A stretch of 64,000 bases of DNA, from assembly GCA_964402565.1 (NCBI GenBank), contig CAYOCJ010000001.1, positions 416,079 through 480,078 on the forward strand. The letters run 5' to 3'. The notes under the pieces were generated by a model. That model was not told where the DNA came from, made no database searches, and saw nothing but the letters and a program-made list of their open reading frames with translations. Of the stretch, positions 7,757-64,000 are shown in pieces. Position numbers and translations under genes: made by a program. This DNA is from an uncultured Gammaproteobacteria bacterium (GTDB taxonomy: Bacteria > Patescibacteriota > Patescibacteriia > UBA1558 > 2-01-FULL-52-15). The stretch's first letter is position 1. Each line of letters begins with the position of its first letter.

Positions 7757-7768
7757 GCTTCAAATAGA

Positions 7769-8111: not shown

Positions 8112-8270
8112 ATGGAACTCACAGATGTACAACTCAAGCTACTTCGAGAGCCGTTTGAGGAAGCAGGGGCACTCAAAGGACTTACCTATGAAGAAATAAA
8201 AAAACTTCTTGAAGAGATTGCAGAAGTGTACATCGTATTGGCTAACGAAAATCTGCTTGCAAAGAAATGA
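8112..8270 (+). CDS. 52-aa helical hypothetical protein (island cargo)
   Basis: The ATG follows the previous stop directly. The stop overlaps the next gene's ATG (ATGA), so it is translationally coupled on both sides. It is below the ORF-track size cutoff. Confidence 0.35.
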   Translation: MELTDVQLKLLREPFEEAGALKGLTYEEIKKLLEEIAEVYIVLANENLLAKK

Positions 8271-8866: not shown

Positions 8867-8894
8867 ACATAGACAGATTCGATTATAAAAAATT

Positions 8895-9209: not shown

Positions 9210-9331
9210 CCCCATGTAAGTTATGTTCTTTGCACCTTGATAACTGGACTTGCCACAACCTGCCATAGTGCTATACTTATATTGCTACCTACAAGTTTGA
9301 ATATGTGCACGGGGTCTCTGCTTTTTTAGCT

Positions 9332-9395
9332 CCAATTGTGGGCGAAAAGGGGCAGTCGAGACCTCCGCAATTGGTTGCCTCGTGCAATTCAATCT
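9332..9395. promoter_or_regulatory. repeated CAATTG-type motifs / imperfect inverted repeat in the 260-bp intergenic region upstream of the recombinase gene pair
   Basis: ccaattgtgg (9332-9341) and ccgcaattgg (9365-9374) form a 10-bp imperfect inverted repeat. A third tgcaattcaat copy follows. This is a candidate operator or recombination site. Confidence 0.3.
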
Positions 9396-9469
9396 TGTGG
9401 GTAGCAGGCTCCTCGGCTGTCCCTTTTCGTGTTTATAAATAACCAGGGACGGGTCGGAGCGAATAAGTT

Positions 9470-9945
9470 ATGGCAACGCTACCACCCACATGCACGTCTC
9501 ACGGATACAAAGATAGCTCTGGAAAAACCCAGGTCGTGTTTAGTTCGGATTGCTACTATCCAGGAAGTAACTGCATCCTCACAAACGACCAGTGTGTCTC
9601 TACATTCAAAGAAACTGGTTGCAAGGGTGGAGATGGACAGTATGCGTGTGCGCAAGCCTATTACCTCAAGCAACAAAGCCAGGTAAAGCCACAAGCTCAA
9701 CCTGTGATAATTACAAATACTGGTCAAGAAAATGCGGAGTTGAAAACACAACTTCAAGAAATGCAGAAACAAATCGAGACGTTACAGTCAAAACAAGCTA
9801 CGGCTACCACAACGGTGCCGCCAGCCCAAACTACACCCCTATTTGAAAACCCAGTCGTTCCATATTCGATTTTGGGAATACTCATAGTAGGAATCGTGGT
9901 GTTGATGAAGATGAAAATCATTACAATCTCATCTAACAAACAACC

Positions 9946-9949
<4 letters not shown>
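9470..9949 (+). CDS. Cys-rich, coiled-coil, C-terminally membrane-anchored hypothetical protein, translationally coupled to the serine recombinase
   Basis: 159 aa with 8 Cys in the first 60 residues, a Q/T-rich coiled coil and a C-terminal TM helix (ILGILIVGIVVLM). The stop overlaps the recombinase ATG (ATGA). Confidence 0.5.
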
Positions 9950-11567
<1,618 letters not shown>

Positions 11568-33700: not shown

Positions 33701-34839
33701 AAATTGGCATTGACGCGCGTTTTTATGGCGTCGTTTCTCAGGGTCTGGGGCGGTATTGCGAACAGCTGGTGACGCAGGTGACGGCCTTGGATCCTCACAA
33801 CGAATACGTCATCTTTGTTACCGCCGGGCATCGATTCGATATTGCATCAGCCAGAGTAACAATCGTTGAATGCAACTACCGCTGGTACGGATTCGCTGAA
33901 CAGTTCCGCTGGCCCTTTTTTTTGATGAAATACCGTTTAGATCTGATGCATTTCACGAGTTTTAATGTTCCGGTGCTCTATCGACGAAGGTTCGTAGTAA
34001 CGATACACGATCTCATTCTTATTCACTTTAAGAGCGCCCATGCAAGTACTTTGCACCCGCTCTATTTTGCTGCGAAGCGCTTGCTCTATCGATGGATCTT
34101 AAGCTCGGCAATTCATCGGGCAGATCGCATTTTAGCTGTATCGAATTTTACCGCTGATGATATACGTACAACTCTGAACAGTAAGAAAAAAATAGACGTC
34201 GCGTACCTGGGTTATGAGCTCACCACTCAGCCAAAGCATGACGACAACTCTACGCGACCTATGCAGCATCAACCTTATTTTCTCTATGTCGGAAATGCAT
34301 ATCCGCATAAAAACCTGGATTTTCTAATTAGCGCATTTGATCAGTGGCGTCAATCGCATTCGCAGTATCAATTAGTTCTCGTCGGAAAACACGATTATTT
34401 TTATCAACGATTGAAGGCTGGGCATATGGATGTCGAATGGATGCATTTGCCTGGGTACGTTACTGATCAAGAATTAGCTCATCTGTATCAAAATGCAGAG
34501 GCATATATTTTTCCTTCATTATACGAAGGTTTTGGAATTCCGCCGCTCGAAGCAATGCAGTTTGGGACGCCAGTGCTCGCCAGCAATGCATCCTGCCTCC
34601 CGGAGATACTGGGCGATGCAGCATTATATTTTGATCCGAACGATGCCGCCAGTCTGCATAAGGCGCTTGATCAATTAATAAGCGATGACCGCTTGCGAGC
34701 TGATTTGTCTTCATTGGGCCTAGAGCAGGTAAAAAAATATAGCTGGAGGCGCATGGGTGAGCAGGTTATCCAACTTTACGCAGAGCTCGAAAAACAGTAT
34801 ACTAGTAAGGACAAAAAGTATACTCATGCGCAGAGCTAA
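33697..34839 (+). CDS. glycosyltransferase family 4
   Basis: EGFGIPPLEAMQFGTPVLAS EX7E motif. ATGA coupling. Confidence 0.8.
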   Translation: MKIGIDARFYGVVSQGLGRYCEQLVTQVTALDPHNEYVIFVTAGHRFDIASARVTIVECNYRWYGFAEQFRWPFFLMKYRLDLMHFTSFNVPVLYRRRFVVTIHDLILIHFKSAHASTLHPLYFAAKRLLYRWILSSAIHRADRILAVSNFTADDIRTTLNSKKKIDVAYLGYELTTQPKHDDNSTRPMQHQPYFLYVGNAYPHKNLDFLISAFDQWRQSHSQYQLVLVGKHDYFYQRLKAGHMDVEWMHLPGYVTDQELAHLYQNAEAYIFPSLYEGFGIPPLEAMQFGTPVLASNASCLPEILGDAALYFDPNDAASLHKALDQLISDDRLRADLSSLGLEQVKKYSWRRMGEQVIQLYAELEKQYTSKDKKYTHAQS

Positions 34840-37537
34840 GAAAAAAAAATTCGATGATGCTGATATTTTTGCAATCGACCAGTATTCGGTTGTTTCAGAA
34901 GATAATACAGCTGCACAAGATGTCCTAGAGTCTCAACAAGAATCTGTATATCAGCAACCGCAAGAAGCAGTGAGTGAGCGCACTAAGGAAGCTCGCGAGC
35001 ATATCAATAGGCTGATCCTCCAGGATATCGCAGTATCACCTCGTGTACCTGAACCAGCTCAGGCTAACCCGCTTCCGGATGAGACACCGATCGCAGATGT
35101 GATCGTACCGGCTTCGAAACAAGAAATGGTGGCTCCTATTTATCGAGGCCATTCGTCAGCAAAACGCAAAGCTAAGCAAATCGAATCAGATGAAAAACCC
35201 TCGCAGTATGTGCTTGATCTGCGGAAGCATTTTTTGATAGAGAAATATAATTTAGATACCTTAGCCCAGCCTCGAGCGCGTTTTCGCCAGAAGTTAGGCA
35301 CGCTGTTCTCTACATTGCAGCACCGTGAGCGCATTCAGTGGCATTATCCTGACCAGAAGACTGCACGACAGAGTAAAGATTTTATTCACGCGACATTTGA
35401 ACATACACCTCAAGAAAGAGAGCTAGAAGACGTACAAGCGCCGGCTGAGGAGGCCATCGCAGAAGCAGAGCCGTTAGTTCAAGAGGCTGTACTTGCTTCA
35501 GCACAGGAGCCTGAGGCTTTCGAGATGCCGGTGCCATGGAAAATGCGCGTTTTTGCTGTCGGCACATTCTGGATCATTTTGGTGTTATTATTATCACCGA
35601 TACCGGTCATCACGTATGCATCGCGCTTTTCGGCAGACGGCAAATCGGTGGTATCAAGCGGTATGCTTGCATTCAGCAATCTCAAAGCAGGCGTTGCTGA
35701 CATTACGAACAGCGATTATACCCAGGCACAGGCATCGCTCGTTGATGCACAGAAAAATTTCAGTGAGATTTCACAGACGGTGGATTCGTATTCAGCCACT
35801 CTAACCGCCATCACTCATCTAGTGCCCGGCATTGGCAGCAAGGTCTCATTTGTGAAGGCGGTCGGCGAAATAGGGGAGCATGCTTCTGCAGTTGGTCTTT
35901 TGCTCGCAGATCCGCTGCGCAGAGATGGCAGCGGGCCTACGGCTACCGACACCCTCAAAAGCTTACAGACACATCTGGCAAGCATTGCAGATATTTTGGA
36001 ATCCTCTGAAAAGGATATTCAGCGTATCGACCTGAACTCGATCCCGCCGGAGTGGAAAGATCAATTCGCCTATGTACAGCAGCACTCAGATGAGTTTACC
36101 CGTACCTTACGGCGGGCGAGCAAGATGCTTGATGTTGCCATTCATATACTAGGATCGGATACATTGACCAGGTACTTGGTCGTTTTCCAAAACTCGCGAG
36201 AGCTTCGTCCAACCGGCGGTTTCATGGGAAGCTTTGCATTGATTGATTTTTCGAAAGGAACGCCGCTCTCCATTGATTTTCCTGGAGCAGGGACCTATGA
36301 CCTGGACGGAGGCTTCAAGCAGCACTTGCTGCCGCCGAAGCCGATCTCTGTCCTCAATGCAGAATGGCATATATGGGATAGCAATTGGTGGCCTGATTTT
36401 CCGACATCAGCAAAAAAGATTTCCTGGTTTTACCAGCAATCCGGGGGGAGGACTGTCGACGGCGTTATTGCGGTTAACTCAGATTTTGTCGTCGACTTGT
36501 TGAAACTTACCGGTCCGATCGAAATGCCGGAGTATGGCGTGACCGTCGATGCTGATTCATTCTACTCTGTCGTACAGAAAGAAGTGGAGGTCAATTATGA
36601 CAAAACTCTGAATCAGCCAAAGAAGATCCTGAAGGACCTTATGCCGAAATTAATTGACCGATTGAACGCATCGAGCGATTACCGGCAGATCCTGGCGGCG
36701 GTGACGCAGGCATTAGATCAGAAAGATATACAGATAGCAGCTCTTACTGATGCAGATACGCAGCAATTGATCGGTTCATTGGGCTGGGATGGAGCCCAGA
36801 ATTCAAATGCGAAGGATTATTTATCGGTCATCTCTACGAATATTGCCGGAGAGAAAAGCGACGCTGCCATTTATGAGACGATCGACCATCATGCAATTGT
36901 TGATGACGCCGGGACAGTCACAGTGACAACGACCGTAACCAAGGAGCACCATGCAGATCCGTCGGATAAGTTTGCCTATGTGACCAATGTTGATTATATG
37001 CGCTTTTATGTGCCATTAGGCAGCACCTTAGTACGCGCGAATGGCTTCAAGCAGCTCGACGAGTCATTGTTCAGGAAAAGCGATGAGCGGGCAGTAGAAG
37101 ACCAGGATTTGCTGTCAATTACGAGTTCTCCGGTAGTGGATGAAGCTACCGGAACTACCGTCGCTGACGAATTAGGTCATACGGTATTTGGGAACTGGAT
37201 GCAAGTTGAGCCAGGAGGCAAGTCTACTGTTTCTATAACCTATACCTTGCCCTTCAAGATAACGATCCCAGATAAGCAAGGAGTCAGCTGGTTAAGTTTG
37301 TGGGGTAAACCATCCCAGGAGGTAGACGCGTATAGTTTATTGGTACAACGCCAGTCAGGAAAAAAGAACACGATATTCAATTCATCTCTGGTGCTGCCGG
37401 ATACGTATTCTATCGTGTGGTCAGATGCCGTCGACCCAGATCATACAGGTACTACGCCGCATGTCTTTACCTACAGTAATGAATTAAATTTTGATACCTA
37501 TTACGCGCTTCTTGTGGCGCGCAAAGCCAAAGAGTGA
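34826..37537 (+). CDS. large membrane-anchored protein with extracytoplasmic DUF4012-like domain (tentative), glycan-cluster associated
   Basis: About 900 aa: an acidic/low-complexity N-terminal region, a single TM near aa 270, and a large C-terminal domain with the motif NSRELRPTGGFMGSF, recalled from DUF4012 proteins found next to polysaccharide genes. The family assignment is from memory and not verified. Confidence 0.7.
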   Translation: MRRAKKKKFDDADIFAIDQYSVVSEDNTAAQDVLESQQESVYQQPQEAVSERTKEAREHINRLILQDIAVSPRVPEPAQANPLPDETPIADVIVPASKQEMVAPIYRGHSSAKRKAKQIESDEKPSQYVLDLRKHFLIEKYNLDTLAQPRARFRQKLGTLFSTLQHRERIQWHYPDQKTARQSKDFIHATFEHTPQERELEDVQAPAEEAIAEAEPLVQEAVLASAQEPEAFEMPVPWKMRVFAVGTFWIILVLLLSPIPVITYASRFSADGKSVVSSGMLAFSNLKAGVADITNSDYTQAQASLVDAQKNFSEISQTVDSYSATLTAITHLVPGIGSKVSFVKAVGEIGEHASAVGLLLADPLRRDGSGPTATDTLKSLQTHLASIADILESSEKDIQRIDLNSIPPEWKDQFAYVQQHSDEFTRTLRRASKMLDVAIHILGSDTLTRYLVVFQNSRELRPTGGFMGSFALIDFSKGTPLSIDFPGAGTYDLDGGFKQHLLPPKPISVLNAEWHIWDSNWWPDFPTSAKKISWFYQQSGGRTVDGVIAVNSDFVVDLLKLTGPIEMPEYGVTVDADSFYSVVQKEVEVNYDKTLNQPKKILKDLMPKLIDRLNASSDYRQILAAVTQALDQKDIQIAALTDADTQQLIGSLGWDGAQNSNAKDYLSVISTNIAGEKSDAAIYETIDHHAIVDDAGTVTVTTTVTKEHHADPSDKFAYVTNVDYMRFYVPLGSTLVRANGFKQLDESLFRKSDERAVEDQDLLSITSSPVVDEATGTTVADELGHTVFGNWMQVEPGGKSTVSITYTLPFKITIPDKQGVSWLSLWGKPSQEVDAYSLLVQRQSGKKNTIFNSSLVLPDTYSIVWSDAVDPDHTGTTPHVFTYSNELNFDTYYALLVARKAKE

Positions 37538-47285: not shown

Positions 47286-48476
47286 ATGTTCAAAAAAAAT
47301 AAAAATCGCCAATTTCCGCGCGCTGGTTCTGGAAATTTTTTCAAAAGGCTTTTCTCGAGGACACACCGCATAGAACACCACGCACCTGATTATACATTGC
47401 TCGGAACCACACTAGTACTGCTCTTTGTCGGCCTTATTACGCTGTCATCAGCTACGTCCATTTTGTCGTTTCAGGAAACGAGCGGCACTTATTATTTTTT
47501 GAGGCGACAGCTGACTCACGGCGTTCTGCCCGGGCTCCTGGCCATGTTCATTTTGTATCGTATCCCGTATCGCAAATATCTGGGATTCACGTCATTATTT
47601 TTATTCGCTGTCTATGCGCTGCTGCTCGTCGTATTCGTTCCTTCGCTGCATCCGGCAGGGTACCCGACAAAAAGCTGGATCGATATCGGATTCACGACCA
47701 TTCAGACCAGCGAAATCGCAAAATTGTTTTTTATTCTATGGCTCGCAGGCTGGTGCACGACGCGGCATGCCTCAATACGGAGTTTAACGGTTACCAGCAT
47801 TCCATTTTTTTTGATAACTGCCAGCATAGCAGGCCTTCTGATGCTGCAGCCGGACGCAGGAACCATGATTTTATTTATGGGCATCGCGATGTGCATGTTT
47901 TTTGTTGCCCAGGGTAATTTGCTCCACATTCTGTTCGCCACCGGATTGGGTTCGCTCATTATTATCCCGGTTATATTGAGGGCTCCGTACCGATTTCAGC
48001 GGCTGACGAGTTTCCTGCACCCAAGTGCTGACACGCAGGGCGCAGGGTATCAGATCTATCAAGCATTGATCGCGCTTGGTTCTGGCTCATGGTTCGGCCT
48101 TGGCATCGGGCGCTCGCAACAAAAGTTTTATTTTGTGCCGGAAGTGGAAAGCGATTCGATATTCGCCATCATAGGCGAAGAGCTTGGCTTCATTATTTCA
48201 GCGATCTTGCTGATTTTATTCGTTTCGCTTTTTTTGCGCGGGATCCGCATAGCGAGAAATGCTCCTGACAGATACGGCGCGCTCGTTGCATGGGGGGTCA
48301 CGCTCCTGATAACGCTTCAGGTCGTCGTCAATGTCGGCGCTATCGTCGGCCTCCTGCCGCTCACTGGGATTCCCTTGCCGTTTATCAGCTTAGGTGGTAC
48401 GAATATCGTTGTCTTGCTTGCCGGACTTGGCATTTTGCTGAATATTTCAACCTATACGAAAGAACAACATGGTTAG
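47286..48476 (+). CDS. ftsW: SEDS-family peptidoglycan glycosyltransferase FtsW/RodA (FtsW by context)
   Basis: 10-TM SEDS protein between mraY and murG. Start at the ATG at 47286. Confidence 0.8.
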   Translation: MFKKNKNRQFPRAGSGNFFKRLFSRTHRIEHHAPDYTLLGTTLVLLFVGLITLSSATSILSFQETSGTYYFLRRQLTHGVLPGLLAMFILYRIPYRKYLGFTSLFLFAVYALLLVVFVPSLHPAGYPTKSWIDIGFTTIQTSEIAKLFFILWLAGWCTTRHASIRSLTVTSIPFFLITASIAGLLMLQPDAGTMILFMGIAMCMFFVAQGNLLHILFATGLGSLIIIPVILRAPYRFQRLTSFLHPSADTQGAGYQIYQALIALGSGSWFGLGIGRSQQKFYFVPEVESDSIFAIIGEELGFIISAILLILFVSLFLRGIRIARNAPDRYGALVAWGVTLLITLQVVVNVGAIVGLLPLTGIPLPFISLGGTNIVVLLAGLGILLNISTYTKEQHG

Positions 48477-50841
48477 GATTTTGCTCTCAGGCGGAGGAAC
48501 GCTTGGGTCAGTGTCGCCGCTTATTGCTATCAAAGAATCGGTTCCTGAGGCTGATTATTTATTTGTCGGGACAAAAAATGGTATTGAGCGTTCCTTCGTC
48601 AAGCGTTTTGGCATACGCTATAAATATATCGGCACCGTAAAGTTCAGGCGCTATCTCTCTTTCGCCAATCTCATAGATCTGGTGAAAATGCCATTCGTAT
48701 TTTTTCAGGCGCTGACCATAGTCATCAGGTATCGGCCGCATATCATTTTGACGTCGGGAAGCTTCGTCTCTGTGCCGGTCGCGTACGCCGGCAAATTATG
48801 CGGCTGTACTATTTTCATTCATCAGCAGGATGCGCAGGTAGGCCTGGCAAACCGCATGATCATGTGGATCGCAAGGGTCATCACGACAACCTTCGAAGAA
48901 CAGGTCAAGTCATTTTCGTTACAAAAGACCCATTGGACAGGCAATCCGATTCGTCCGTTAGAGCAAAAAAATATTGCTGAAGAGGATCTCATACTGGTAC
49001 TGGGCGGCAGCAGCGGAGCGCATGGGCTGAATGCCGCAATGGGCGAGGTGCTCCCGAATTTTAGCGAACGGTATGAGATCGTACATGTACTTGGCAGTCG
49101 AAATTTTTTCCAGCGACTGAGCCTGGGGAAAAAATATAACGCCGTGCAATTTCTTGATGCTGAATACGCCGACGTGCTTCAACGAGCGCGTGTTGTTGTT
49201 ACGCGAGCCGGCATGTCGACATTGACTGAACTGGCGCACTATAAAAAAGCGACCTTAGTCATACCGATGCCGGATACGCATCAGGTTCCCAATGCACAAT
49301 TTTTTGCAAACCACGAAGCTGTGGTGTATGTGCCGCAGATGGATCGGAGGATGCAGATTGTTGAGCTTGAGAAAATGCTGACCGATTCGAAGAGGCGATC
49401 GTCTTTGGGCAAAGCGCTGCATAAGCTGTTTCCTGATGATGCAAATGTGCGCTATGCAAAACTATTGCGTTCATACTTTCCCGCTGATCAGCATGCGGTG
49501 AAGACAGCTTACTTTGTCGGCATCGGGGGCATCGGCATATCGGCTGTTGCTGAACAGTTCATTGAAGATGGGTATGCGGTCATCGGTTCAGATCTCAGGC
49601 CGACACAGGTGACCAAACAATTAGAATCACGCGGCGCTCGAATTTTTTATGATCATCGAAAGGAAAATGTACCTGCGACGCTTGAAGTGCTCATCTATTC
49701 GACAGCAGTGCCGATCACCAATGAGGAAATAGTGGAAGCGCAGCATCGGCACATTGCTGTGTATTCGTATAAGGACTACCTTGGTGAAATATCAAAAAAA
49801 TACACGACGGTCGCTATTTCAGGCACACATGGCAAAACAACGACCACCGCTCTTACCGGTCTAATGCTGAAAGAGGGCGGTCTGGACCCAACGATTATTG
49901 TCGGGTCATTCGTCCCGCAACTCGGCAATATGAATTATCATGCAGGCAAGGGCGGCATTTTGGTCGTTGAAGCAGATGAGTACCGATCGGATATGCTGAG
50001 GCTGCATCCGACGATCGCTGTCGTGACCAATATCGATAAGGACCACCTTGATTTTTATAAAGACATAAACGATATTACTGAGCATTTCCGATCATTCATT
50101 CACCTCGTACCTTCTGATGGCATGGTCATTCTGAACGGAGATGATAGTCGCTTGAGGAAGATAGCCTCAGCTCACGCAACGACATATGGTCTGTCTGAAA
50201 ACGTCGATTATCAGGCTACGAAGCTCAGCCTCGGCAATGGCGTGCAGCATTTTTCGGTACTCGAGAAAAAAAAGCTCTTAGGCTCATTTGAACTGCATGT
50301 CCCAGGAGAATTCAATGTATTGAACGCGCTTGCCGGGATTGCAGTTGCGCGACGTTTTCAAATACCGCTTGCCTCGATACAAAAAAGCGTTCAGTCTTTT
50401 AAAGGTACGTGGAGGCGATTCGAATATATCGGCAATTTTAATGAAGCGAAGGTCTTTACCGACTATGCGCATCATCCGACCGCTATACACGCAACGTTGA
50501 CGGCGGCAAAATCATTTTATCCGAAGCACCGGCTGGTGGTGGTATTTCAGCCGCACTCGTATGACCGCACTGACAAGCTCTTCAACGAATTTTTGGATGC
50601 GTTCCGGGAAGCCGACATGTTGAGGCTCGTAGATGTATACGATGTTGCCGGCCGAGATACAGCAAAAAAAGCAAATTCAAAAGATCTGATTGCACACCTC
50701 TCGCATCCGGCTTCAAAATATATTGGTTCGCTCGATGAGCTGCGGGCCGACCTCGAGAAAGAAATTACACAGCATGATATACTGGTAATCATGGGCGCGG
50801 GTGATATCGACGCCTTTGCACGATCATTGGTCACCACATGA
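48469..50841 (+). CDS. murG: bifunctional MurG (lipid II GlcNAc transferase) - MurC (UDP-MurNAc--L-Ala ligase) fusion protein
   Basis: MurG region at aa 1-345 (LLSGGGTLGSVSPLIAI, GGSSGAHGLN, TRAGMSTLTEL). MurC region at aa 350-790 (YFVGIGGIGISAVAEQ, AISGTHGKTTTTAL). Continuous ORF of 790 aa. Confidence 0.85.
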   Translation: MVRILLSGGGTLGSVSPLIAIKESVPEADYLFVGTKNGIERSFVKRFGIRYKYIGTVKFRRYLSFANLIDLVKMPFVFFQALTIVIRYRPHIILTSGSFVSVPVAYAGKLCGCTIFIHQQDAQVGLANRMIMWIARVITTTFEEQVKSFSLQKTHWTGNPIRPLEQKNIAEEDLILVLGGSSGAHGLNAAMGEVLPNFSERYEIVHVLGSRNFFQRLSLGKKYNAVQFLDAEYADVLQRARVVVTRAGMSTLTELAHYKKATLVIPMPDTHQVPNAQFFANHEAVVYVPQMDRRMQIVELEKMLTDSKRRSSLGKALHKLFPDDANVRYAKLLRSYFPADQHAVKTAYFVGIGGIGISAVAEQFIEDGYAVIGSDLRPTQVTKQLESRGARIFYDHRKENVPATLEVLIYSTAVPITNEEIVEAQHRHIAVYSYKDYLGEISKKYTTVAISGTHGKTTTTALTGLMLKEGGLDPTIIVGSFVPQLGNMNYHAGKGGILVVEADEYRSDMLRLHPTIAVVTNIDKDHLDFYKDINDITEHFRSFIHLVPSDGMVILNGDDSRLRKIASAHATTYGLSENVDYQATKLSLGNGVQHFSVLEKKKLLGSFELHVPGEFNVLNALAGIAVARRFQIPLASIQKSVQSFKGTWRRFEYIGNFNEAKVFTDYAHHPTAIHATLTAAKSFYPKHRLVVVFQPHSYDRTDKLFNEFLDAFREADMLRLVDVYDVAGRDTAKKANSKDLIAHLSHPASKYIGSLDELRADLEKEITQHDILVIMGAGDIDAFARSLVTT

Positions 50842-55196: not shown

Positions 55197-56909
55197 ATGA
55201 ATAAGTATCGAGTTGAGTCAACTAGACGCAGAATGTCATCCCGGACGCAGGTCCGGCTTAGTTTATTGGCCATCGTGCTCTTGGCTGGTTTTTTTTCGCT
55301 CATCGCCTGGCCGAATTTGCCGGCAGGTTTCCCCGCATCTGCATATTTTAATAAATTTTCTCCGCATCTTGGACTAGATCTGCAGGGAGGTACGCACTTG
55401 GTATATCAGGCAGACCTTTCCAATATTGATTCATCTGAAAAGAATTCAGCGATCGAAGGAGCTCGAGATGTCATTGAACGCCGCGTCAATACCTTAGGCG
55501 TTGCTGAACCGGTCGTTGAAACCGCAAATCAGGCTGGCAATGCCCGCATCATTGTCGAGCTGGCAGGCATTAAAGATGTTAATCAGGCTATCAAACTGAT
55601 CGGTGATACGCCTTTGCTTGAATTTAAGGAAACATCTGATCAAAAGGCAACATCCACTCAGCCGACAGCCGATCAGATTTCAGCTGTAACAAAGGCGAAT
55701 CAGGAAAAAGAAAAGCTCGCAAAGGAACTTATTGCACGATTGAACAAAGGTGAATCCTTTGATGAGCTGGCGAAAAAATATTCTGAGGATACATCGAAGG
55801 ATAAAGGCGGCGATCTTGGTTTCGTGACCAAAGGTGTCTTTACGCCGCTCTTCGAGAAGGCGATCTTTGACGAAATGAAGGTCGGAGAATTGCGCCAGAC
55901 ACCTCTAAAAACGGAATTCGGATACCATGTGATCAAAAAGTTAGAGGAGCGGACCAATGATAAGGGCGAGAAAGAAGTGCGTGCGGCTCACATTCTCTTG
56001 AAGACGGCTTCTATAGCTCCGGCGACCACCGATATACAGTGGGTCAATACTCAGCTCTCAGGCAAGAACTTGAAGCGTGCGCAGGTTACTTTTAGTTATC
56101 AGGCAAATGAGCCGCAGGTTAGTTTGATGTTCGACAGCGAGGGCGCTGACCTCTTCAAAACGATCACTGAACGCAATATTGGAAAGCAAGTCGGCATTTT
56201 TCTGGATGGTTCAGTTATTTCAGCGCCGACTGTGCAAACAGCTATTACCGGAGGTCAGGCGGTTATCACGGGGAATTTCGGTCTTAAGGAAGCTAAGCTT
56301 TTGGCGCAGCGCTTAAACGCTGGTGCATTGCCGGTGCCGATCTCTTTGATCAATCAACAGACCATCGGCGCTAGCCTTGGCCAGGATTCGCTGCAACGCA
56401 GTTTGCAGGCAGGCCTGATCGGCTTTATTTTGGTGGCTTTGTTTATGATTCTGTATTATCGATTGCCAGGCGTTCTCTCAGTATTGGCTTTGGCTTTGTA
56501 TGCCATTATCACGCAGGGGCTGTTTGAAATCATCCCAGTAACGCTGACATTAGCCGGTGTAGCTGGTTTTATTCTTTCTGTAGGTATGGCGGTCGACGCG
56601 AACGTGCTGATCTTCGAACGTGTCAAAGAGGAATTACGCTCCGGAAGCAGCTATCTGCAGGCAGTAGAGGATGGTTTCAAGCGAGCATGGTCATCGATTC
56701 GCGACTCGAATGTATCGAGCCTTATCACCTGTGCGATTTTGTATTGGTTCGGTTCTTCAATTATCCGGGGTTTTGCCGTCACATTGGCCTTAGGCATTCT
56801 CGTGAGTATGTTCTCGGCTATCAATGTGACTCGAACCTTCCTGCGTATTATCATCAAACGGCAGTTCATACAGAAGAGCTGGTTATTCGGAATTAGAAAG
56901 AATTCATAA
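55197..56909 (+). CDS. secD: protein translocase subunit SecD with an embedded parvulin-like (PpiC-type) segment in the periplasmic domain
   Basis: GLDLQGGTHLVYQ SecD motif and a C-terminal 6-TM SecD region. Residues ~165-270 carry GGDLGF....FGYHVIKK and a following AAHILLK, which are hallmarks of parvulin rotamases. Confidence 0.85.
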   Translation: MNKYRVESTRRRMSSRTQVRLSLLAIVLLAGFFSLIAWPNLPAGFPASAYFNKFSPHLGLDLQGGTHLVYQADLSNIDSSEKNSAIEGARDVIERRVNTLGVAEPVVETANQAGNARIIVELAGIKDVNQAIKLIGDTPLLEFKETSDQKATSTQPTADQISAVTKANQEKEKLAKELIARLNKGESFDELAKKYSEDTSKDKGGDLGFVTKGVFTPLFEKAIFDEMKVGELRQTPLKTEFGYHVIKKLEERTNDKGEKEVRAAHILLKTASIAPATTDIQWVNTQLSGKNLKRAQVTFSYQANEPQVSLMFDSEGADLFKTITERNIGKQVGIFLDGSVISAPTVQTAITGGQAVITGNFGLKEAKLLAQRLNAGALPVPISLINQQTIGASLGQDSLQRSLQAGLIGFILVALFMILYYRLPGVLSVLALALYAIITQGLFEIIPVTLTLAGVAGFILSVGMAVDANVLIFERVKEELRSGSSYLQAVEDGFKRAWSSIRDSNVSSLITCAILYWFGSSIIRGFAVTLALGILVSMFSAINVTRTFLRIIIKRQFIQKSWLFGIRKNS

Positions 56910-57857: not shown

Positions 57858-57882
57858 TTGGGCCTTTTGGCCTCTTTTTTTG
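57858..57882 (+). terminator. intrinsic terminator after secF
   Basis: ggcc-tttt-ggcc followed by tctttttttg. Confidence 0.55.
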
Positions 57883-57904: not shown

Positions 57905-57941
57905 TATAATGCTTGACTAAATTTATTAATTATGCTATATT
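57905..57941 (+). promoter_or_regulatory. sigma-70-type promoter(s) upstream of the 57975 gene
   Basis: TATAAT at 57905-57910, and TTGACT (57913-57918), a 17-nt spacer, then TATATT (57936-57941). Confidence 0.5.
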
Positions 57942-57974: not shown

Positions 57975-59081
57975 ATGTCTCAGTCAATATTAGACCAAGT
58001 CTTGTCATCACAGAAACAATCAGCAATCTCACGTTTTGACGCTGCAGAAACAGCTTCAAAGCTTTTTGGCATACTGAATGAGCGCGAGCAAGATATTATC
58101 CAGAAGCGATATGGCTTGCACGGTAAAGATAAAAGTACGCTCGAAGAGATCGGAAAGAGCTATGCGGTGACCCGCGAGCGAATACGGCAGGTCGAAAATA
58201 CATCACTGAAGCGAATTCGCGAGTCTTTTAATGAAACAATATTAAAAGAGCTCGAGTATTTGATCCAGAATATACTTGAAGATCATGGTGATATCATGTC
58301 TGAAAGTAAACTGGTTAAAATGCTGCTTGCAGCAGAGGATGAGAAGTCTAGTGACGGCGCTTTGGTCCGTTTCTTGCTCAACCAGCTGCTTACTGACCGT
58401 TTGGAATCGGTCAAAGACTCAGATACGACATACAAAGCTTGGTCGCTACCGGGTGCAGACTGGGAAACCTACGATCATATCGTCAAACAATTGATAGATA
58501 TTATCGATACGCATGGAGAGCCATTAGCACTTGAAGCTTTGCTGAGCCATGCTCGCGATCAGATCAAGCTCGAGAATGAGATGCATCAGAATTTCGAGAA
58601 TATTATCATGAATTATCTGGATGTAACCAAGAAGATCGAAGAGAATAAATTCAATGAGTGGGGTTTGTCGCACTGGAACAGTATCAAGCCGCGCCGCATG
58701 AATGACAAGATCTATATGATCATGAAGCGCGAGAATAAGCCGATGCACTTCGTTGAGATCGCTAAAAAGATAAATGAGGCTGGCTTTGATACACGCGTTG
58801 CGTACCCTGCGACCATCCATAATGAGCTTATCCTTGACGATAAGTATGTTCTGGTCGGCAGAGGTATTTATGCTCTCAAAGAATGGGGTTATAAACCGGG
58901 CGTGGTCCTGGATGTTATCAAGGACACCATCCGAAAGAGTCCGAAACCGCTGACTCGTGACGGCATTATTGATGAAGTACTCAAGAATCGCATGGTCAAG
59001 CGGAGTACGGTTATACTCGCATTGATGAATAAGAAGCATTTTTCGAAAAATGCTGACGGAACATACGCAATAGCTGAGTAA
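57975..59081 (+). CDS. sigma-70 region-4 HTH + C-terminal HARE-HTH-like domain protein (putative transcription factor)
   Basis: N-terminus STLEEIGKSYAVTRERIRQVENTSLKRIR is a sigma region 4.2 HTH. C-terminus MHFVEIAKKINEAGF...VLVGRGIYALKEW matches the HARE-HTH / RpoE-delta N-domain pattern. No sigma region 2 is present. Confidence 0.6.
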   Translation: MSQSILDQVLSSQKQSAISRFDAAETASKLFGILNEREQDIIQKRYGLHGKDKSTLEEIGKSYAVTRERIRQVENTSLKRIRESFNETILKELEYLIQNILEDHGDIMSESKLVKMLLAAEDEKSSDGALVRFLLNQLLTDRLESVKDSDTTYKAWSLPGADWETYDHIVKQLIDIIDTHGEPLALEALLSHARDQIKLENEMHQNFENIIMNYLDVTKKIEENKFNEWGLSHWNSIKPRRMNDKIYMIMKRENKPMHFVEIAKKINEAGFDTRVAYPATIHNELILDDKYVLVGRGIYALKEWGYKPGVVLDVIKDTIRKSPKPLTRDGIIDEVLKNRMVKRSTVILALMNKKHFSKNADGTYAIAE

Positions 59082-59140
59082 GTTTTTCTGCTGCTTCACG
59101 CATTTACTGGCGTGCGGTACAATACAAATACAAAGAAATC

Positions 59141-60658
59141 ATGAACGCCTGGTTCGAACAAATTACCGTTTTTTTTGTTGAGCTTTCTACCAAGAATCCA
59201 CTGTCTATCATGTGGATTTTATTTCTTAAAGGAGGCTGGGTCATTGTCATGATCGGCTTGCTTCGGCTGTGGTGGCTGATGCGTTTATATTCGCTGCAAA
59301 CCAAGTACAGCAAAACCATCACGTATACCATGCTTGCCATAGATATTCCGAAGGCCAGCGAACAAACGCCGAAAGCCATGGAACAGGTGTTCGCTACTAT
59401 ATCTGGGGCGCATGCAGACTTCAACAAAAAAGAAATTTATCTGAAGGGAATGTACCAATTGTCATTTTCTTTCGAGATCATCAGTATTGACGGGTATATT
59501 CAGTTTTTGATTCGAACGCCATCGGTATTCCGAGATCTGATCGAAGGCGCGATCTATGCCCATTATCCCGACGCTGAGATCACGGAAGTGTATGATTATA
59601 CGACCGATATACCGACTAATTTCCCCAATGATAGATTCAACCTCTGGGGCGCTGAGATCGAAACTGCAGCAAATGAGGCGCTGCCGCTACGTACGTACGA
59701 GTCTTTCGAGGATAAATTGTCGCAAGAACTGAAAGACCCGCTGGCCGGCGTGCTCGAAACCATGAGCCGCATTCAAAAAGGAGAGCAAGTCTGGCTTCAG
59801 ATCATCGTGAAGCCGACGGACACCGCATGGGCGAAAAAATGCATCGCATATGCTCATAAGCTAGCCGGCAAGAAAACTGAGACCAAAAGCAGCAAATCCT
59901 GGTACTCGCCAATTTTGGGTTTTCTCTATGGCATGTTCGATGATTGGATATCATGGATGCCTGGCTCAAAAGTCGAATCGAAAAATGATAACGGGCTGGA
60001 TTTTAAAGTATTGAACCTCACACCGGGTGAACGCGCTACCATTGAAGCGGTGGAGCGGAAAGCTTCAAAGATAGGCTTCGTTTGCAAAATTCGACTCATG
60101 TATCTTTCTCCTCACGAGCAATTTTCCGCGAAGCGCGTTGTCTCCGCAGTATTCGGCGGTATGAAGCAATTCGGAGACCTCAGCTCAAATGCGTTGAAGC
60201 CCAATAAGCGGACAAAGACACAGGCAGTGTATTTCAGGCCAGAACAGCGCGCAGATGCACGGAGACGGAGGATCATGGGCAATTACAAAGCGCGCTCGTG
60301 GTTTAACGGATCAAAATACTTCATTTTGAATACTGAAGAACTTGCAACACTCTATCATTTCCCGTCGATCACGGTGACTACACCGTACTTGAAACGCACC
60401 GAGGCAAAAAAGAGCGACGCGCCTTCTCAATTGCCTTCCAGTGCTGAAGAGGTCATGGTGCAAGAAGAGAGCAACCTTAAGCAGCAGCTTGAAGGCTTAT
60501 CGCTCGATAATAGCTACTACGAAAAATTATACGCGAAAGGACCTGTTGAAAAACCCAAGCAAAAAGCGACGCTCAGTACTCCCGAAAAACAGCAGCCAGG
60601 TACACCAGCAATCGAGTCGAGTGACGGTGTCCCGCATAATTTACCGATACTGCAATGA
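59141..60658 (+). CDS. membrane-anchored hypothetical protein (2 N-terminal TM + ~430-aa soluble domain), coupled to T4CP-like ATPase
   Basis: 505-aa ORF with no motif recognised. Stop/start ATGA overlap with the downstream ATPase gene. Confidence 0.6.
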   Translation: MNAWFEQITVFFVELSTKNPLSIMWILFLKGGWVIVMIGLLRLWWLMRLYSLQTKYSKTITYTMLAIDIPKASEQTPKAMEQVFATISGAHADFNKKEIYLKGMYQLSFSFEIISIDGYIQFLIRTPSVFRDLIEGAIYAHYPDAEITEVYDYTTDIPTNFPNDRFNLWGAEIETAANEALPLRTYESFEDKLSQELKDPLAGVLETMSRIQKGEQVWLQIIVKPTDTAWAKKCIAYAHKLAGKKTETKSSKSWYSPILGFLYGMFDDWISWMPGSKVESKNDNGLDFKVLNLTPGERATIEAVERKASKIGFVCKIRLMYLSPHEQFSAKRVVSAVFGGMKQFGDLSSNALKPNKRTKTQAVYFRPEQRADARRRRIMGNYKARSWFNGSKYFILNTEELATLYHFPSITVTTPYLKRTEAKKSDAPSQLPSSAEEVMVQEESNLKQQLEGLSLDNSYYEKLYAKGPVEKPKQKATLSTPEKQQPGTPAIESSDGVPHNLPILQ

Positions 60659-62382
60659 CAAACGATTCCATAACAGTATTTGCCTCTACTAATTTCCGCA
60701 ATCGCCAGCAGCGATTCGGCATTAAGGCTGATGATCGTCGCCGGCATATGTATTTGATCGGTAAAACCGGCATGGGCAAGTCTGAAATGCTGAAGAATAT
60801 GGCAATTCAGGATATTCGCAATGGTCATGGCGTTGCTGTGGTCGATCCTCACGGCGACATGGTAGAAACGGTCCTGCGTTTCGTGCCGCGCGAACGGATC
60901 AATGATGTGGTGTATTTCAATCCGTCCGACCTTGATTTCCCGATCGCATTCAATGTACTTGAAAAAGTATCACTAGAGCAGCGCCATTTAGTTGCGTCAG
61001 GCCTGATAGGCGTTTTCAAAAAGATCTGGGCCGACTCCTGGGGGCCTCGTCTCGAATACGTCCTGCACAATGCAATCTCTGCGTTGCTGGAGTATCCCGG
61101 CTCGACCTTACTGAGTATTATGCGAATGCTCACGGATAAGGCTTTCCGCAAGCGCGTCGTTGAAAAGATCAATGACCCCGTCGTAAAAGCATTCTGGGTG
61201 GAGGAGTATTCGAAATATCCTGACCGGTTCCAGGCTGAAGCGATCGCACCGATCCAAAACAAAGTCGGACGATTCCTCACATCTGCTCTCATGAGAAATA
61301 TTGTAGGACAGGTCGCTTCATCGATCAACGTCCGTGAGATGATGGATAATCAGAAGATCTTTCTTATTAATTTGTCAAAAGGACGCGTCGGAGAAGATAA
61401 TTCGGCCTTGCTCGGTGCTCTGCTGATCACAAAAATGCAGCTTGCTGCAATGAGCCGTGTCGATATACCCGAAAAAGATCGTAAAGATTTTTATTTGTAT
61501 GTTGACGAGTTTCAAAATTTTGCCACCGAAAGTTTTGCCGGTATTCTGTCTGAAGCCAGAAAGTATCGCCTGAATCTAATTTTGGCACACCAATATATTG
61601 CGCAGCTCGTGCATGATGGCAATAGTACGGTTCGCGATGCGGTATTCGGCAACGTAGGCACCTTGGTTACATTCAGAGTCGGTGCTGCTGACGCTGAATT
61701 TATGGAACCGGAGTTTATGCCGGCTTTGACACAGGAGGACCTGGTCAACTTACCGAAGTATCAGATCTATTTGAAACTTATGATCGATGGCGTTACCTCG
61801 AATGCTTTTTCAGCATCGACTTTGCCACCGTATGAGCCGCCGGCTGATGCGGCTGAAATCGTTGATAAGGTTATTAAAGTTTCTCGCGAACGATACGCAA
61901 AACCTCGCGAGGTGATTGAGGACAAAATCATTCGCTGGGCCGAAAATACCGGCGATGACCAGCCGAAGGCCAGCCACGATACCCAATCAACACAAGCTGC
62001 CGCGCCGAGGGTTTATGAAGCAGGCGGGTCCCGTGACCGATCAACTTCAGATATAAAGGCTCCGAAAGGTGATGCGAAACTATTCGATGCTACCTGTTCT
62101 AACTGCGGCAAGAAAACAACCACGAAATTTAAACCCGATCCCAAGCGGCCCGTATACTGCCCTGAATGCCTGCAAAAGGTTAAAGCTGGCCTGCTGCAAC
62201 CTGCTCCAGTACAAGCTGCTGCACCGATTCCAAAGGAAGTCTCTTTGATGGAGGCTATTTCATCTCATCAACAAAAGAGACCTGTAAAGACAGATGATTT
62301 GGTAGGCTCGCTCGACGATAAGCCCGCAAATCGCCTGCTCCAGCCGAACCAAGTTATACACCTAAGCGATAGTAAAAACTGA
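60655..62382 (+). CDS. FtsK/HerA-superfamily P-loop ATPase most similar to type IV coupling proteins (TraD/VirD4-like), no TM segments, C-terminal zinc ribbon
   Basis: Walker A GKTGMGKSE followed by VAVVDPHGD, Walker B FYLYVDEFQNF, and RKYRLNLILAHQYIAQL, a T4CP-like arginine finger/Q motif. C-terminal CSNCG...CPEC zinc ribbon. Confidence 0.7.
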   Translation: MTNDSITVFASTNFRNRQQRFGIKADDRRRHMYLIGKTGMGKSEMLKNMAIQDIRNGHGVAVVDPHGDMVETVLRFVPRERINDVVYFNPSDLDFPIAFNVLEKVSLEQRHLVASGLIGVFKKIWADSWGPRLEYVLHNAISALLEYPGSTLLSIMRMLTDKAFRKRVVEKINDPVVKAFWVEEYSKYPDRFQAEAIAPIQNKVGRFLTSALMRNIVGQVASSINVREMMDNQKIFLINLSKGRVGEDNSALLGALLITKMQLAAMSRVDIPEKDRKDFYLYVDEFQNFATESFAGILSEARKYRLNLILAHQYIAQLVHDGNSTVRDAVFGNVGTLVTFRVGAADAEFMEPEFMPALTQEDLVNLPKYQIYLKLMIDGVTSNAFSASTLPPYEPPADAAEIVDKVIKVSRERYAKPREVIEDKIIRWAENTGDDQPKASHDTQSTQAAAPRVYEAGGSRDRSTSDIKAPKGDAKLFDATCSNCGKKTTTKFKPDPKRPVYCPECLQKVKAGLLQPAPVQAAAPIPKEVSLMEAISSHQQKRPVKTDDLVGSLDDKPANRLLQPNQVIHLSDSKN

Positions 62383-62389
62383 GAAAAAG

Positions 62390-62398
62390 TGATATAAT
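62390..62398 (+). promoter_or_regulatory. extended -10 promoter (TGaTATAAT) for the pilin gene
   Basis: tgatataat lies 68 nt upstream of the pilin ATG, directly after the ATPase stop. Confidence 0.45.
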
Positions 62399-62413
62399 CT
62401 AGTAAACCTACGA

Positions 62414-62436
62414 TATCCACTGGAATAATGTGGATA
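62414..62436. promoter_or_regulatory. perfect 7-bp inverted repeat TATCCAC-N9-GTGGATA between pilin promoter and start codon (candidate operator)
   Basis: Seen directly in the sequence. Positioned +15 to +40 relative to the putative -10. Confidence 0.35.
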
Positions 62437-62465
62437 ACTAGGACTAAGTATATATATAACAAAAC

Positions 62466-62981
62466 ATGAAATTACAAAGCAAAAAGGGATTTACGCTTAT
62501 CGAACTTATCATCGTTGTAGCCATCATTGGTTTATTGGCAGCAGCTTTATTCGTAGCTATTGACCCTGCAAAGCGCGTGGGTGACGCCCGTGACGCGCGT
62601 CGCTATGCTGACGTAACTTCTGTTTTGAACGCTATTTTACAATATACGGTTGACGCTAACGGATTGCCAACGCCAGTTGCTAATATGACTCCCGGCAACT
62701 ACTATGTCATAGCACAAGGCCAAGGACAGCTCACCAGCGGTGCAACCAGCGACAATGCTGATTGTGTGGAACTTCTCGGCACCAGCGGAGCTCAATCGAA
62801 CTACGGACAAATCAATCTTTGGACTGCTCTGACCGATAAGTATATAGCGACCATGCCTGTTGATCCATCGCAGACCGCAAGCAGTACTGGCTATTACATC
62901 AAGAAGAGCTCGAGTAATAGAATTTTGGTCGGATCTTGTCTGAAGTCGAATTCTACGAACTCGATTGAAGTGCAGAGATAA
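62466..62981 (+). CDS. type IV pilin (major-pilin-like, 171 aa)
   Basis: Prepilin leader plus G-FTLIELIIVVAIIGLLAA N-methylation domain, with a C-terminal Cys pair (CVELLG...GSC). Confidence 0.85.
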   Translation: MKLQSKKGFTLIELIIVVAIIGLLAAALFVAIDPAKRVGDARDARRYADVTSVLNAILQYTVDANGLPTPVANMTPGNYYVIAQGQGQLTSGATSDNADCVELLGTSGAQSNYGQINLWTALTDKYIATMPVDPSQTASSTGYYIKKSSSNRILVGSCLKSNSTNSIEVQR

Positions 62982-63004
62982 GTGCAATACATTTACACTT
63001 GAAC

Positions 63005-63031
63005 AAAAACCTTCTACTCAAGAAGGTTTTT
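63005..63031 (+). terminator. intrinsic terminator after pilin gene
   Basis: aaaaaccttct-actca-agaagg-ttttt. Confidence 0.6.
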
Positions 63032-63048
63032 GATTTAGAAAAGCTCAG

Positions 63049-64000
63049 ATGAATTTGTCGAGTACACGAAGCAAGGCAGCATTTGATCTATGGACATTAT
63101 TGCCCTTGTTTTTCATACTCGTCTCAGTATACCTCTATTTGCCGGCGATTCATTACCCATTTATTTGGGACGACGAAGCTCAGGTAGTTAATAATGAATT
63201 GATCCGTCATGCGTCGAACCTGCCGCGCCTCTTATTGGGTCCGACATTTGATGTGGGAGGAGGAGTACTTGCCGGGGCTTATTGGAGACCCTTAGTCGTT
63301 ATTTCAAACTTCATCAATTACCAGATCTGGGGTGAGAATCCTGCAGGATTCCGCTTGTATCAGCTCGGGTTGCATTGCGCAGTCATACTGCTGCTTTTTA
63401 TTCTCATCAAACAACTGGCAGAACTCTTTCAAGTCGCTCAATCAAAGGAGTTGGCGCTGCTGGTGACGTCGCTCTATGCCGTACAGCCAGTACATGTCGA
63501 ATCGGTCATTTACATCGGCAGCATAGGCGAGGTCCTCTATACCTTATTTTCGATCGCTGCTCTTATTTTTTTTACAAAAAGCTTATTGATTTCTGATCAA
63601 AAAAAGCAGCTGAATTTTGAAATTGTATTTTTTATTCTTACAGGCATCGCGCTGCTAGCCAAAGAAAGCGCTGTCGTCGTTTTTTTGATCGCAGCTTTTT
63701 TGGGCTACGTCGCACATCGTAAAGGATCCCGCTTTTGGCTTCGCTATATAACCGGCGCTTCAGCAACTGTCGGTGTGTATGCATTCCTGCGCTTATTCAT
63801 CGCACATGTTGTTTTTATCAAAGATTACGGTTCGTATATATCCAGTGCGTCCTTGTATGAACGGCTGCTGACCGTGCCGTATGTCATTTTGTCATATATC
63901 GTCAAGCTGACCGTGCCGGTGCGCCTGGTCATCTATGAGAATAAGGTCGTTCATAGCCCGCTCGATCCTGCGTTTTGGCTATATGGAACTGGCGTTTTGG
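63049..64000 (+). CDS. GT-C superfamily membrane glycosyltransferase (PMT/ArnT-like), 3'-partial
   Basis: ORF open to the window end, so it is not in the ORF track. First periplasmic loop carries the DE catalytic motif (FIWDDEAQVVNN), followed by YWRPL and multiple TM helices. Confidence 0.55.
   Translation, partial: MNLSSTRSKAAFDLWTLLPLFFILVSVYLYLPAIHYPFIWDDEAQVVNNELIRHASNLPRLLLGPTFDVGGGVLAGAYWRPLVVISNFINYQIWGENPAGFRLYQLGLHCAVILLLFILIKQLAELFQVAQSKELALLVTSLYAVQPVHVESVIYIGSIGEVLYTLFSIAALIFFTKSLLISDQKKQLNFEIVFFILTGIALLAKESAVVVFLIAAFLGYVAHRKGSRFWLRYITGASATVGVYAFLRLFIAHVVFIKDYGSYISSASLYERLLTVPYVILSYIVKLTVPVRLVIYENKVVHSPLDPAFWLYGTGVL

Follow-up and report, generated by a model that had tools for sequence, protein, structure and literature searches.

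What do two overlapping genes in a housekeeping stretch of a Patescibacteria chromosome encode between them, the first specifying a membrane protein with the domain DUF8128 and the second an ATPase that resembles the coupling proteins of type IV secretion systems (T4SSs), and does the type IV pilin gene that follows them belong to the same device? We addressed this question in a 64,000-nt stretch of DNA (referred to here as the window) whose closest named relatives are Komeilibacteria. A first-pass annotation had described four open reading frames (ORFs) of 368, 505, 575, and 171 amino acids as a candidate pilus-linked translocation module with its own regulator. All four ORFs are present, all on the + strand (Table 1). 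The annotation was partly supported: it was largely right in what it observed and right in pairing the 505- and 575-amino-acid proteins, and the pilus link and the dedicated regulator found no support. The reading that we favor, and consider reasonably likely, is that the DUF8128 protein and the ATPase are the two halves of one membrane-anchored nucleoside triphosphatase (NTPase) motor with the layout of VirB4 and an ATPase of the VirD4 type, independent of the pilin and most likely independent of T4SSs.

Pairing and fusion of the DUF8128 and ATPase genes

Conservation of the gene pair was examined in 80 related loci from different Patescibacteria species, the DUF8128 proteins of which are 35–51% identical to the query. 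Three of these loci end too early, leaving 77 that are informative for pairing. The ATPase gene lies directly 3' of the DUF8128 gene in 69 of the 77, with a median gap of 3 nt and an overlap in 12 of 58 pairs. In the window, the stop codon of the DUF8128 gene and the start codon of the ATPase gene share the sequence ATGA at 60655–60658, and the overlap from which translational coupling had been proposed is thus real. The first-pass annotation had allowed that the two genes might not be conserved together in relatives, and these counts demonstrate that they are.

The two proteins also occur as fusions. Three proteins (P0251, P0254, and P0256) are each encoded by one ORF with a transmembrane segment, DUF8128, a Walker A motif, and the sequence VVDPHGE, with a Walker B motif also found in P0251 and P0254. 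In a Pontibacillus record, the fusion ORF ends in the Walker A motif. These fusions belong to a different lineage, made up of replicons of about 0.9–1.2 Mb that were deposited as part of Pontibacillus and Bacillus cereus-group assemblies, together with related metagenome sequences. In Candidatus Southlakia epibionticum (S. epibionticum), the 921-amino-acid protein SEML1_0293 carries Pfam domains of type IV coupling proteins (T4CPs) from residue 402 onward (PMC10633639 supplement), which implies that the two halves are joined in Saccharibacteria as well. These data indicate that the DUF8128 protein and the ATPase are one functional unit, as had been suggested for the membrane protein and the soluble NTPase. 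Because the genes adjoin in most informative loci and are fused into a single ORF elsewhere, we interpret them as one motor, composed of a transmembrane anchor, a domain predicted to resemble the N-terminal domain of VirB4, and a T4CP-like ATPase. A 1016-amino-acid ORF in locus L007 that had the appearance of a further fusion was rejected because a run of masked N bridges two genes there.

The fusion records are L081 (NZ_CP062975.1 331714–356955, the Pontibacillus sp. ALD_SL1 'plasmid'), L083/L084, and L085, and the fusion replicons also carry CheW, GGDEF, MCP, three T4SS_pilin genes, and a VirB4-like CD1110 gene. The ATPase of the Pontibacillus record was recovered in five tblastn pieces separated by 250–600 nt, and the ribonucleotide reductase of this record is split too. 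In P0251 and P0254, which come from metagenomes, the fusion ends directly behind Walker B. Such broken fusion ATPases could reflect interrupted genes, a decaying element, or an unrecognized organism. A separate variation is found in a clade of seven loci (L040, L044, L052, L063, L070, L072, and L078), in which the DUF8128 gene keeps both the sigma4/HARE-HTH gene upstream and the C-terminal PxNLP tail described below, and in which an ORF that by eye is glycosyltransferase-like, together with two large low-complexity proteins, replaces the ATPase. The large protein after the glycosyltransferase-like ORF resembles, by eye only, a DUF4012 protein encoded elsewhere in the window.

Relationship of the ATPase to coupling proteins

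On the basis of its sequence matches, the 575-amino-acid ATPase is a relative of the VirD4/TrwB/TraD coupling proteins. It matched the Pfam models TrwB_AAD_bind (2.4e-13, residues 26–344), DUF87 (2.5e-7), TraG-D_C, T4SS-DNA_transf, and zf_Tbcl_2, passing the Pfam domain cut-offs. TrwB was its sole sequence match in the PDB (1.2e-6), and hhalign aligned it to TrsK of pGO1 over 302 columns (E 0.0015). It also matched the NCBIfam models for TraD and the VirD4-like CD1115, in these cases far under the cut-offs (SXT_TraD, 48 bits against 366; CD1115, 36 against 250; TraD_Ftype, 22 against 521). The corresponding comparisons with VirB4 gave no CagE_TrbE_VirB match, a single match to a VirB4 model that covers Walker A alone (16 against 590 bits), and an hhalign alignment to pGO1 TrsE limited to 95 C-terminal columns. 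The ATPase therefore has the FtsK/HerA-type nucleotide-binding domain with Walker A and Walker B that is expected of a T4CP; it lacks an N-terminal transmembrane domain in the same polypeptide, and it does not score above the curated family cut-offs.

The motifs previously listed for this protein (Walker A, VVDPHGD, Walker B, a Q motif, and a C-terminal zinc ribbon) are all present, and GKTGMGKSE, VVDPHGD (at 62), DEFQNF, AHQY (at 311), and the zinc-ribbon cysteines are invariant among 35 homologues. The zinc ribbon was found in 44 of 57 long ATPase ORFs from the related loci, and the variants with a long C-terminus contain no extra recognizable domain. The TrwB_AAD_bind match spans the region of the putative all-alpha insertion, for which the structural model is helical at residues 107–217 with low predicted local distance difference test (pLDDT) scores of about 45–65. 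The highest Kyte-Doolittle hydropathy over a 19-residue window is 1.31, with no segment above the threshold of 1.6 that we used for transmembrane segments. The protein was thus correctly described as a soluble ATPase of the FtsK/HerA/T4CP type. PADLOC matched residues 25–372 to mad8 of the MADS system (1.7e-15), a similarity that probably reflects shared ATPase ancestry and not a role in defense. A role as a substitute for FtsK was considered and rejected; S. epibionticum also has an essential canonical FtsK.

A predicted VirB4-like domain in the DUF8128 protein

DUF8128 (PF26449) is annotated on the identical database protein (P0001) and on every listed homologue of the 505-amino-acid protein. 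Our own Pfam scan of this protein gave no match, probably because the PF26449 model is missing from the Pfam copy used. The family comprises 3,153 cluster representatives at E<=1e-3, and a full-text literature search for 'DUF8128' returned no paper.

The protein is laid out as an N-terminal membrane anchor, a domain at about residues 60–410, and a disordered tail. A single segment (about residues 20–46) exceeds the hydropathy threshold, and within it G31 and W33 are nearly invariant; the first helix, at residues 2–16, is short and stays under the threshold. The two N-terminal transmembrane helices of the first-pass annotation thus hold as a membrane anchor and not as two clear transmembrane helices, and judging from the sequence the N-terminus is either one transmembrane helix or a re-entrant hairpin. 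Because positive charges come after the hydrophobic segment, the positive-inside rule would place the large domain in the cytoplasm. At the end of the disordered tail, a P-x-N-L-P (PxNLP) motif is present in 64 of 74 family members from the loci, and this tail may serve as a docking peptide.

We generated an AlphaFold2 model from an alignment of 39 homologues. Its mean pLDDT is 76.7, and at about residues 60–250 and 290–410 most 10-residue blocks score 82–95, with dips to 70–78. The best 12 Foldseek matches of the model were all TrwK chains (E 2e-4 to 3e-3, probability 0.96–1.00), TrwK being the VirB4 protein of R388. In the list from a second structure search, there was no P-loop ATPase besides VirB4, and a resemblance to EccE was apparent. 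Since DUF8128 itself lacks a P-loop and VirB4 was the sole RecA-like protein matched, the similarity most readily falls in the N-terminal domain of VirB4. The model thus predicts that the soluble domain of the DUF8128 protein folds like the N-terminal domain of VirB4.

Several observations weigh against the interpretation of the pair as a VirB4-like motor. The fold assignment comes from a single predicted model that was searched with two structure-comparison programs, and the placement of the TrwK match in the N-terminal domain is deduced from the absence of other P-loop matches. By sequence, hhalign of the DUF8128 profile gave no signal with pGO1 TrsD (E 0.29) or TrsE, a Pfam scan of all 39 family members turned up no consistent match even at E<=10, and searching the profile against the PDB gave just chance-level matches to ribosomal S6; the link between DUF8128 and VirB4 is for this reason a structural one. 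The structural model of the ATPase is poor (pLDDT 61), and structure comparison alone does not separate T4CP, HerA, and the VirB4 C-terminal domain, the HerA score being no better than the T4CP scores. Eight of the 77 informative loci have other genes after DUF8128 and no adjacent ATPase. The identification of the N-terminal 400 residues of SEML1_0293 as DUF8128 is drawn from length, synteny, and annotation. Finally, the SecD-SecF genes found upstream of the pair in 48 of the 80 loci could indicate protein export and not DNA transport.

Comparison with known systems and a proposed mechanism

VirB4 (TrwK; PDB 7o42, 7o43, and 8rtd) shares with the pair the overall order, in which an N-terminal domain close to the membrane precedes an ATPase of the FtsK/HerA type, and a membrane anchor is present in both cases. 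In T4SSs this anchor is supplied by VirB3, which is sometimes fused to VirB4. The pair differs from VirB4 in that its ATPase half matches VirD4/TraD profiles and not VirB4 profiles, and in having about 9% sequence identity to TrwK with no profile-level match. VirB4 is a single polypeptide encoded within a T4SS cluster, whereas here two separate genes with housekeeping neighbors encode the motor, which is chromosomal and near-universal in the phylum and has no VirB3/6/8 genes nearby. The T4CPs (TrwB, VirD4, TraD, and CD1115 proteins such as pGO1 TrsK) share with the ATPase Walker A and B and a TraG-D_C region, and the TrwB_AAD_bind alignment would extend this to the all-alpha insertion. They differ in that the pair's ATPase has no transmembrane domain of its own and scores far under the family cut-offs, and in that the pair has a partner resembling the VirB4 N-terminal domain, a C-terminal zinc ribbon, and no relaxase or mating-pair genes nearby. 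The earlier description of a split coupling protein consequently applies to the pair as a unit containing a membrane-less T4CP-like ATPase; it fails in the strict sense, since the partner has the predicted fold of the VirB4 N-terminal domain. To our knowledge, canonical T4CPs lack a VirB4 N-terminal domain.

Three further systems are informative. In the TrsD and TrsE (VirB4) proteins of pGO1-type Gram-positive T4SSs and the TrsD-VirB4 pairs of Patescibacteria, a separate small protein related to the VirB4 N-terminus adjoins the ATPase as it does here (PMC12102498). TrsD differs in being a 227-amino-acid protein of T4SS clusters that hhalign did not match to DUF8128, whereas DUF8128 proteins have about 500 amino acids and lie outside such clusters beside a T4CP-like ATPase. 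CedB and CedD are crenarchaeal HerA/VirB4-type ATPases that function in DNA import in genomes without VirB4 and have N-terminal domains that match parts of the VirB4 one in structural superposition (PMC11868833), and they provide a precedent that such ATPases can import DNA. They differ in being archaeal and in carrying the N-terminal domain in the same polypeptide, and CedD matches the pair's ATPase in sequence only around Walker A (NCBIfam, 25.6 bits against a cut-off of 600). For EccE and EccC of type VII secretion, the resemblance is much weaker, and other ESX components are not found.

TrwB, VirB4, FtsK, and HerA are ring-shaped translocases, and the N-terminal domain of VirB4 ties the ATPase to membrane partners in T4SSs. 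In the mechanism that we propose, the DUF8128 protein would supply the membrane anchor and a cytoplasmic domain resembling the VirB4 N-terminal domain, and the second protein would supply a VirD4/TrwB-type P-loop ATPase with a putative all-alpha insertion and a C-terminal zinc ribbon. Together these would give the anchor, N-terminal domain, and ATPase of VirB4, but with a motor of the coupling-protein type. By analogy, the ATPase would form a ring held by DUF8128 at the cytoplasmic face of the membrane, and ATP would drive the pushing or pulling of a macromolecule by this ring. The transmembrane helices of DUF8128 may line or flank the conduit, with the PxNLP tail and the zinc ribbon as candidate docking or substrate-binding elements.

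Our favored guess for the cargo, made by analogy, is nucleic acid, with the pair for example powering DNA uptake or export from the cytoplasmic side. DNA is favored because the most closely related families move DNA, and because the CedB/CedD importers are ATPases with domains like the VirB4 N-terminal domain (PMC11868833). It is also favored because Patescibacteria are competent and have ComEC, ComFC, and DprA; for S. epibionticum, no ComFA is found in the published tables, and its com genes are dispensable, as is SEML1_0293 (PMC10633639). A more specific proposal, that the pair is a self-contained T4SS-independent DNA motor that provides the missing cytoplasmic ATPase of ComEC-based uptake and is a bacterial counterpart of CedB/CedD, strikes us as improbable, as does the idea that it is a surviving intermediate between VirB4 and VirD4. 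Protein is a possible cargo, favored by the conserved SecDF neighborhood and the resemblance to EccE.

The pair is an ancient, chromosomal, and near-universal feature of Patescibacteria. We know of no earlier account of its architecture or of the partnership, the databases giving only a DUF and an orphan T4CP. Our analysis provides this orphan T4CP-like ATPase with a partner and a defined architecture, in the form of an adjoining or fused DUF8128, and assigns a predicted fold to a domain of no known function that has about 3,000 cluster representatives. What the orphan coupling protein does can be tested directly, because a fused homologue, SEML1_0293, is dispensable in a Saccharibacterium that is amenable to genetics. 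The pair also bears on the divergence of VirB4 and VirD4.

Alternative explanations

One alternative is that the pair is the coupling protein of a Patescibacteria T4SS, encoded far from the virB4 cluster and feeding substrates into it. The ATPase is T4CP-like by sequence, T4CP genes often lie away from virB4 (PMC12102498), and a domain like the VirB4 N-terminal domain could dock on VirB3-, VirB6-, or VirB8-like parts. We consider this role unlikely, and published counts point the same way. In a survey of 3,035 Patescibacteria genomes, VirD4-like T4CP homologues (n=5,713) were present in 2,918 (96%) and VirB4 in 2,417 (80%), and only 148 of the 5,713 T4CP homologues were near virB4; the survey makes no mention of a DUF8128 partner, and in its words exaptation of t4cp 'cannot be ruled out' (PMC12102498). 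The role is made less likely still by transposon sequencing (Tn-seq) in S. epibionticum, which scored the T4SS genes and another T4CP-like gene (SEML1_0142) as essential and SEML1_0293 as non-essential, its read counts nevertheless falling from 5817 to 2940 to 1372 (PMC10633639). In the window, negative findings on T4SS and pilus genes cover the scanned ORFs of at least 120 amino acids. Among these we found no VirB4, relaxase, PilB/PilC, or ComEC, and the absence of a relaxase, VirB4, and other T4SS parts claimed by the first-pass annotation holds at this scope. The gene families that recur in the 80 loci include neither a relaxase nor a VirB4-based T4SS.

A second alternative is that the pair works in protein export or membrane-protein handling beside Sec, with the ATPase unfolding proteins or feeding them at the membrane. 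SecD-SecF lie immediately upstream in the 48 loci mentioned above, with SecA further up in some, and proteins are among the substrates of T4CPs and of the related EccC ATPases. Against this, there is no SecDF adjacency in S. epibionticum, terminator-like and promoter-like sites divide secF from the next gene in the window, and these small genomes conserve the order of many unrelated housekeeping genes. We regard this explanation as quite unlikely.

The first-pass annotation itself proposed a pilus-linked device for uptake or export of DNA or protein, made of pilin, membrane protein, and ATPase under the sigma4/HARE-HTH regulator. The 171-amino-acid protein is indeed a type IV pilin, and it follows the ATPase both in the window and in three close relatives with 61–79% identity (L087–L089); moreover, Patescibacteria are naturally competent and use type IV pili (PMC10633639). 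The proposed link to pili did not survive a survey of homologous neighborhoods, in which no ORF with a prepilin motif was found within 6 kb of the pair in the 80 related loci (0 of the 60 with enough downstream sequence). The same scan recovers both pilin-like genes of the window. The pilin gene of the window is flanked by a promoter-like site and a terminator of its own, and it travels with a membrane protein whose relatives in L087–L089 are TPR proteins of 581–588 amino acids, the order of the two being swapped in L087. PilB, PilC, PilD, and ComEC were not found in the window, and neither assembly genes nor a conserved pilin linkage is present as would be expected of a type IV pilus or competence operon. 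In addition, the S. epibionticum counterpart of the supposed regulator is essential and the ATPase is not. We consider a pilus-linked device very unlikely. Because the pilin is absent from the 80 loci and kept only in three close relatives, its link to the pair is a clade-specific adjacency, and the pilin is a lineage-specific, separately transcribed neighbor outside the conserved module.

A HerA-type DNA repair or anti-phage module (HerA-NurA, DndH/DptH, HerA-Sir2, or MADS), suggested by the weak PADLOC matches to mad8 and HerA (6.7e-6) and by the DUF87 match, is highly improbable given that neither the window nor the loci have a nuclease, Sir2, or methylase partner next to the ATPase, that the partner it does have is a membrane protein with a fold like the VirB4 N-terminal domain, that this is a near-universal syntenic core family and not an island gene, and that sequence profiles favor T4CP families. 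The pairing of a HAS-barrel HerA with an adjacent NurA nuclease, which the first-pass annotation had named as a competing identification, did not appear. A defense module was likewise rejected, the similarity to mad8, HerA, and DndH being weak and the context that of housekeeping genes.

The upstream sigma4/HARE-HTH gene

A sigma4/HARE-HTH gene precedes DUF8128 in 50 of the 80 loci. The 368-amino-acid protein matched Sigma70_r4 at residues 33–83 (3.3e-13) and HARE-HTH at residues 244–296 (1e-5) in Pfam, in agreement with the two domains first read from the sequence, and its region 4 matched SigA/RpoD/RpoS in a PDB search. Sigma region 2 was not detected by Pfam, NCBIfam, or PDB searches, and all sigma models scored far under their cut-offs. 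A sigma-70 family sigma factor has both region 2 and region 4; this protein has region 4 only. Its S. epibionticum counterpart SEML1_0294 combines these two domains as well, occupies the corresponding position beside the fused ATPase SEML1_0293, and is flagged as Patescibacteria-enriched (PMC10633639). Because SEML1_0294 is essential in Tn-seq while the neighboring ATPase is dispensable (PMC10633639), the 368-amino-acid protein is probably a general RNA-polymerase-associated factor, and its proposed role as regulator of the module is not supported. A protein with sigma region 4 and HARE-HTH and no region 2 may be an RNA-polymerase accessory factor in its own right.

A promoter-like site is present upstream of this gene, as had been claimed; the word 'strong' is not borne out, the site being a consensus match and not a measurement. 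To its 5' side, a weak terminator-like hairpin appears from the sequence to divide the Sec genes from the next unit.

Table 1. Positions of genes, motifs, and putative signals at the locus, in window coordinates.
Feature	Position	Strand	Evidence
Terminator-like hairpin and U-run 3' of secF	57860..57873	+	-8.6 kcal/mol, z -2.0, weak
Sigma-70-type promoter-like site, TTGACT-17-TATATT with TG	57913..57941	+	10/12 consensus matches
Sigma4/HARE-HTH gene, 368 amino acids	57975..59081	+	Pfam and NCBIfam
DUF8128 (PF26449) protein, 505 amino acids	59141..60658	+	Precomputed PF26449 annotation
Single hydrophobic segment, residues about 20–46, SIMWILFLKGGWVIVMIGLL...	59198..59278	+	Hydropathy
P-x-N-L-P motif near C-terminus, invariant P498, L501, P502	60632..60646	+	Conservation
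T4CP-like ATPase, FtsK/HerA superfamily, 575 amino acids	60655..62382	+	Pfam, NCBIfam, PDB
Walker A GKTGMGKSE, residues 36–44	60760..60786	+	Motif; G36–K42 invariant, 35 homologues
Walker B DEFQNF, residues 284–289	61504..61521	+	Motif and conservation
Zinc ribbon CxxC-x17-CxxC (CSNC...CPEC), residues 481–505	62095..62169	+	zf_Tbcl_2 1e-11, TIGR04272 5e-12
Extended -10-like TGATATAAT 5' of pilin	62390..62398	+	Read from sequence; not listed by promoter scan
Type IV pilin, 171 amino acids, prepilin motif KKGFTLIE	62466..62981	+	N_methyl 1.7e-8 (Pfam), NCBIfam
Intrinsic-terminator-like hairpin and U-run after pilin	62999..63038	+	-16.2 kcal/mol, z -4.99
Start of membrane protein, running off the window	63049..64000	+	Open frame

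Other neighbors and features of the window

The pilin had been called strongly promoted and terminated. The terminator is well supported (z -5.0), whereas the strong promoter is not, the site consisting of an extended -10 only. A second protein with a prepilin motif, of 425 amino acids (16721–17998, +; N_methyl 2.6e-6; GFTLLE at 16760), is encoded directly upstream of RecJ and far from pilus assembly genes. The genes 3' of the DUF8128-ATPase pair vary among the loci and look like housekeeping genes, with no family found in more than 18 of the 80; an example is an ORF that, read from the sequences, is alanyl-tRNA-synthetase-like.

The window is a housekeeping stretch of the chromosome. It contains genes for the cell wall and division (MraY, FtsW, a MurG-MurC fusion, MurB, MreB, MreC, a penicillin-binding protein, and MurJ) as well as LepA, RNase P RNA, RecJ, SecA, SecD, and SecF. 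MurG and MurC are fused into a single 790-amino-acid protein (48469–50841, +). SecD (55197–56909, +) has an inserted peptidyl-prolyl isomerase (Rotamase) domain, as it does in the relatives L087–L089. The region 1814–11567 is probably an integrated element, with a GC content of 0.41–0.44 compared to about 0.48 elsewhere. It encodes a type I restriction-modification system, consisting of HsdR (4234–6750) and a fused methylase/specificity protein (1814–4231), together with several ORFs without a family match and a large serine recombinase (9946–11526) that abuts tRNA-Gln (11494–11567). The DUF4012 protein of the window has 926 amino acids (34757–37537, +) and is encoded between a glycosyltransferase cluster and MurJ.

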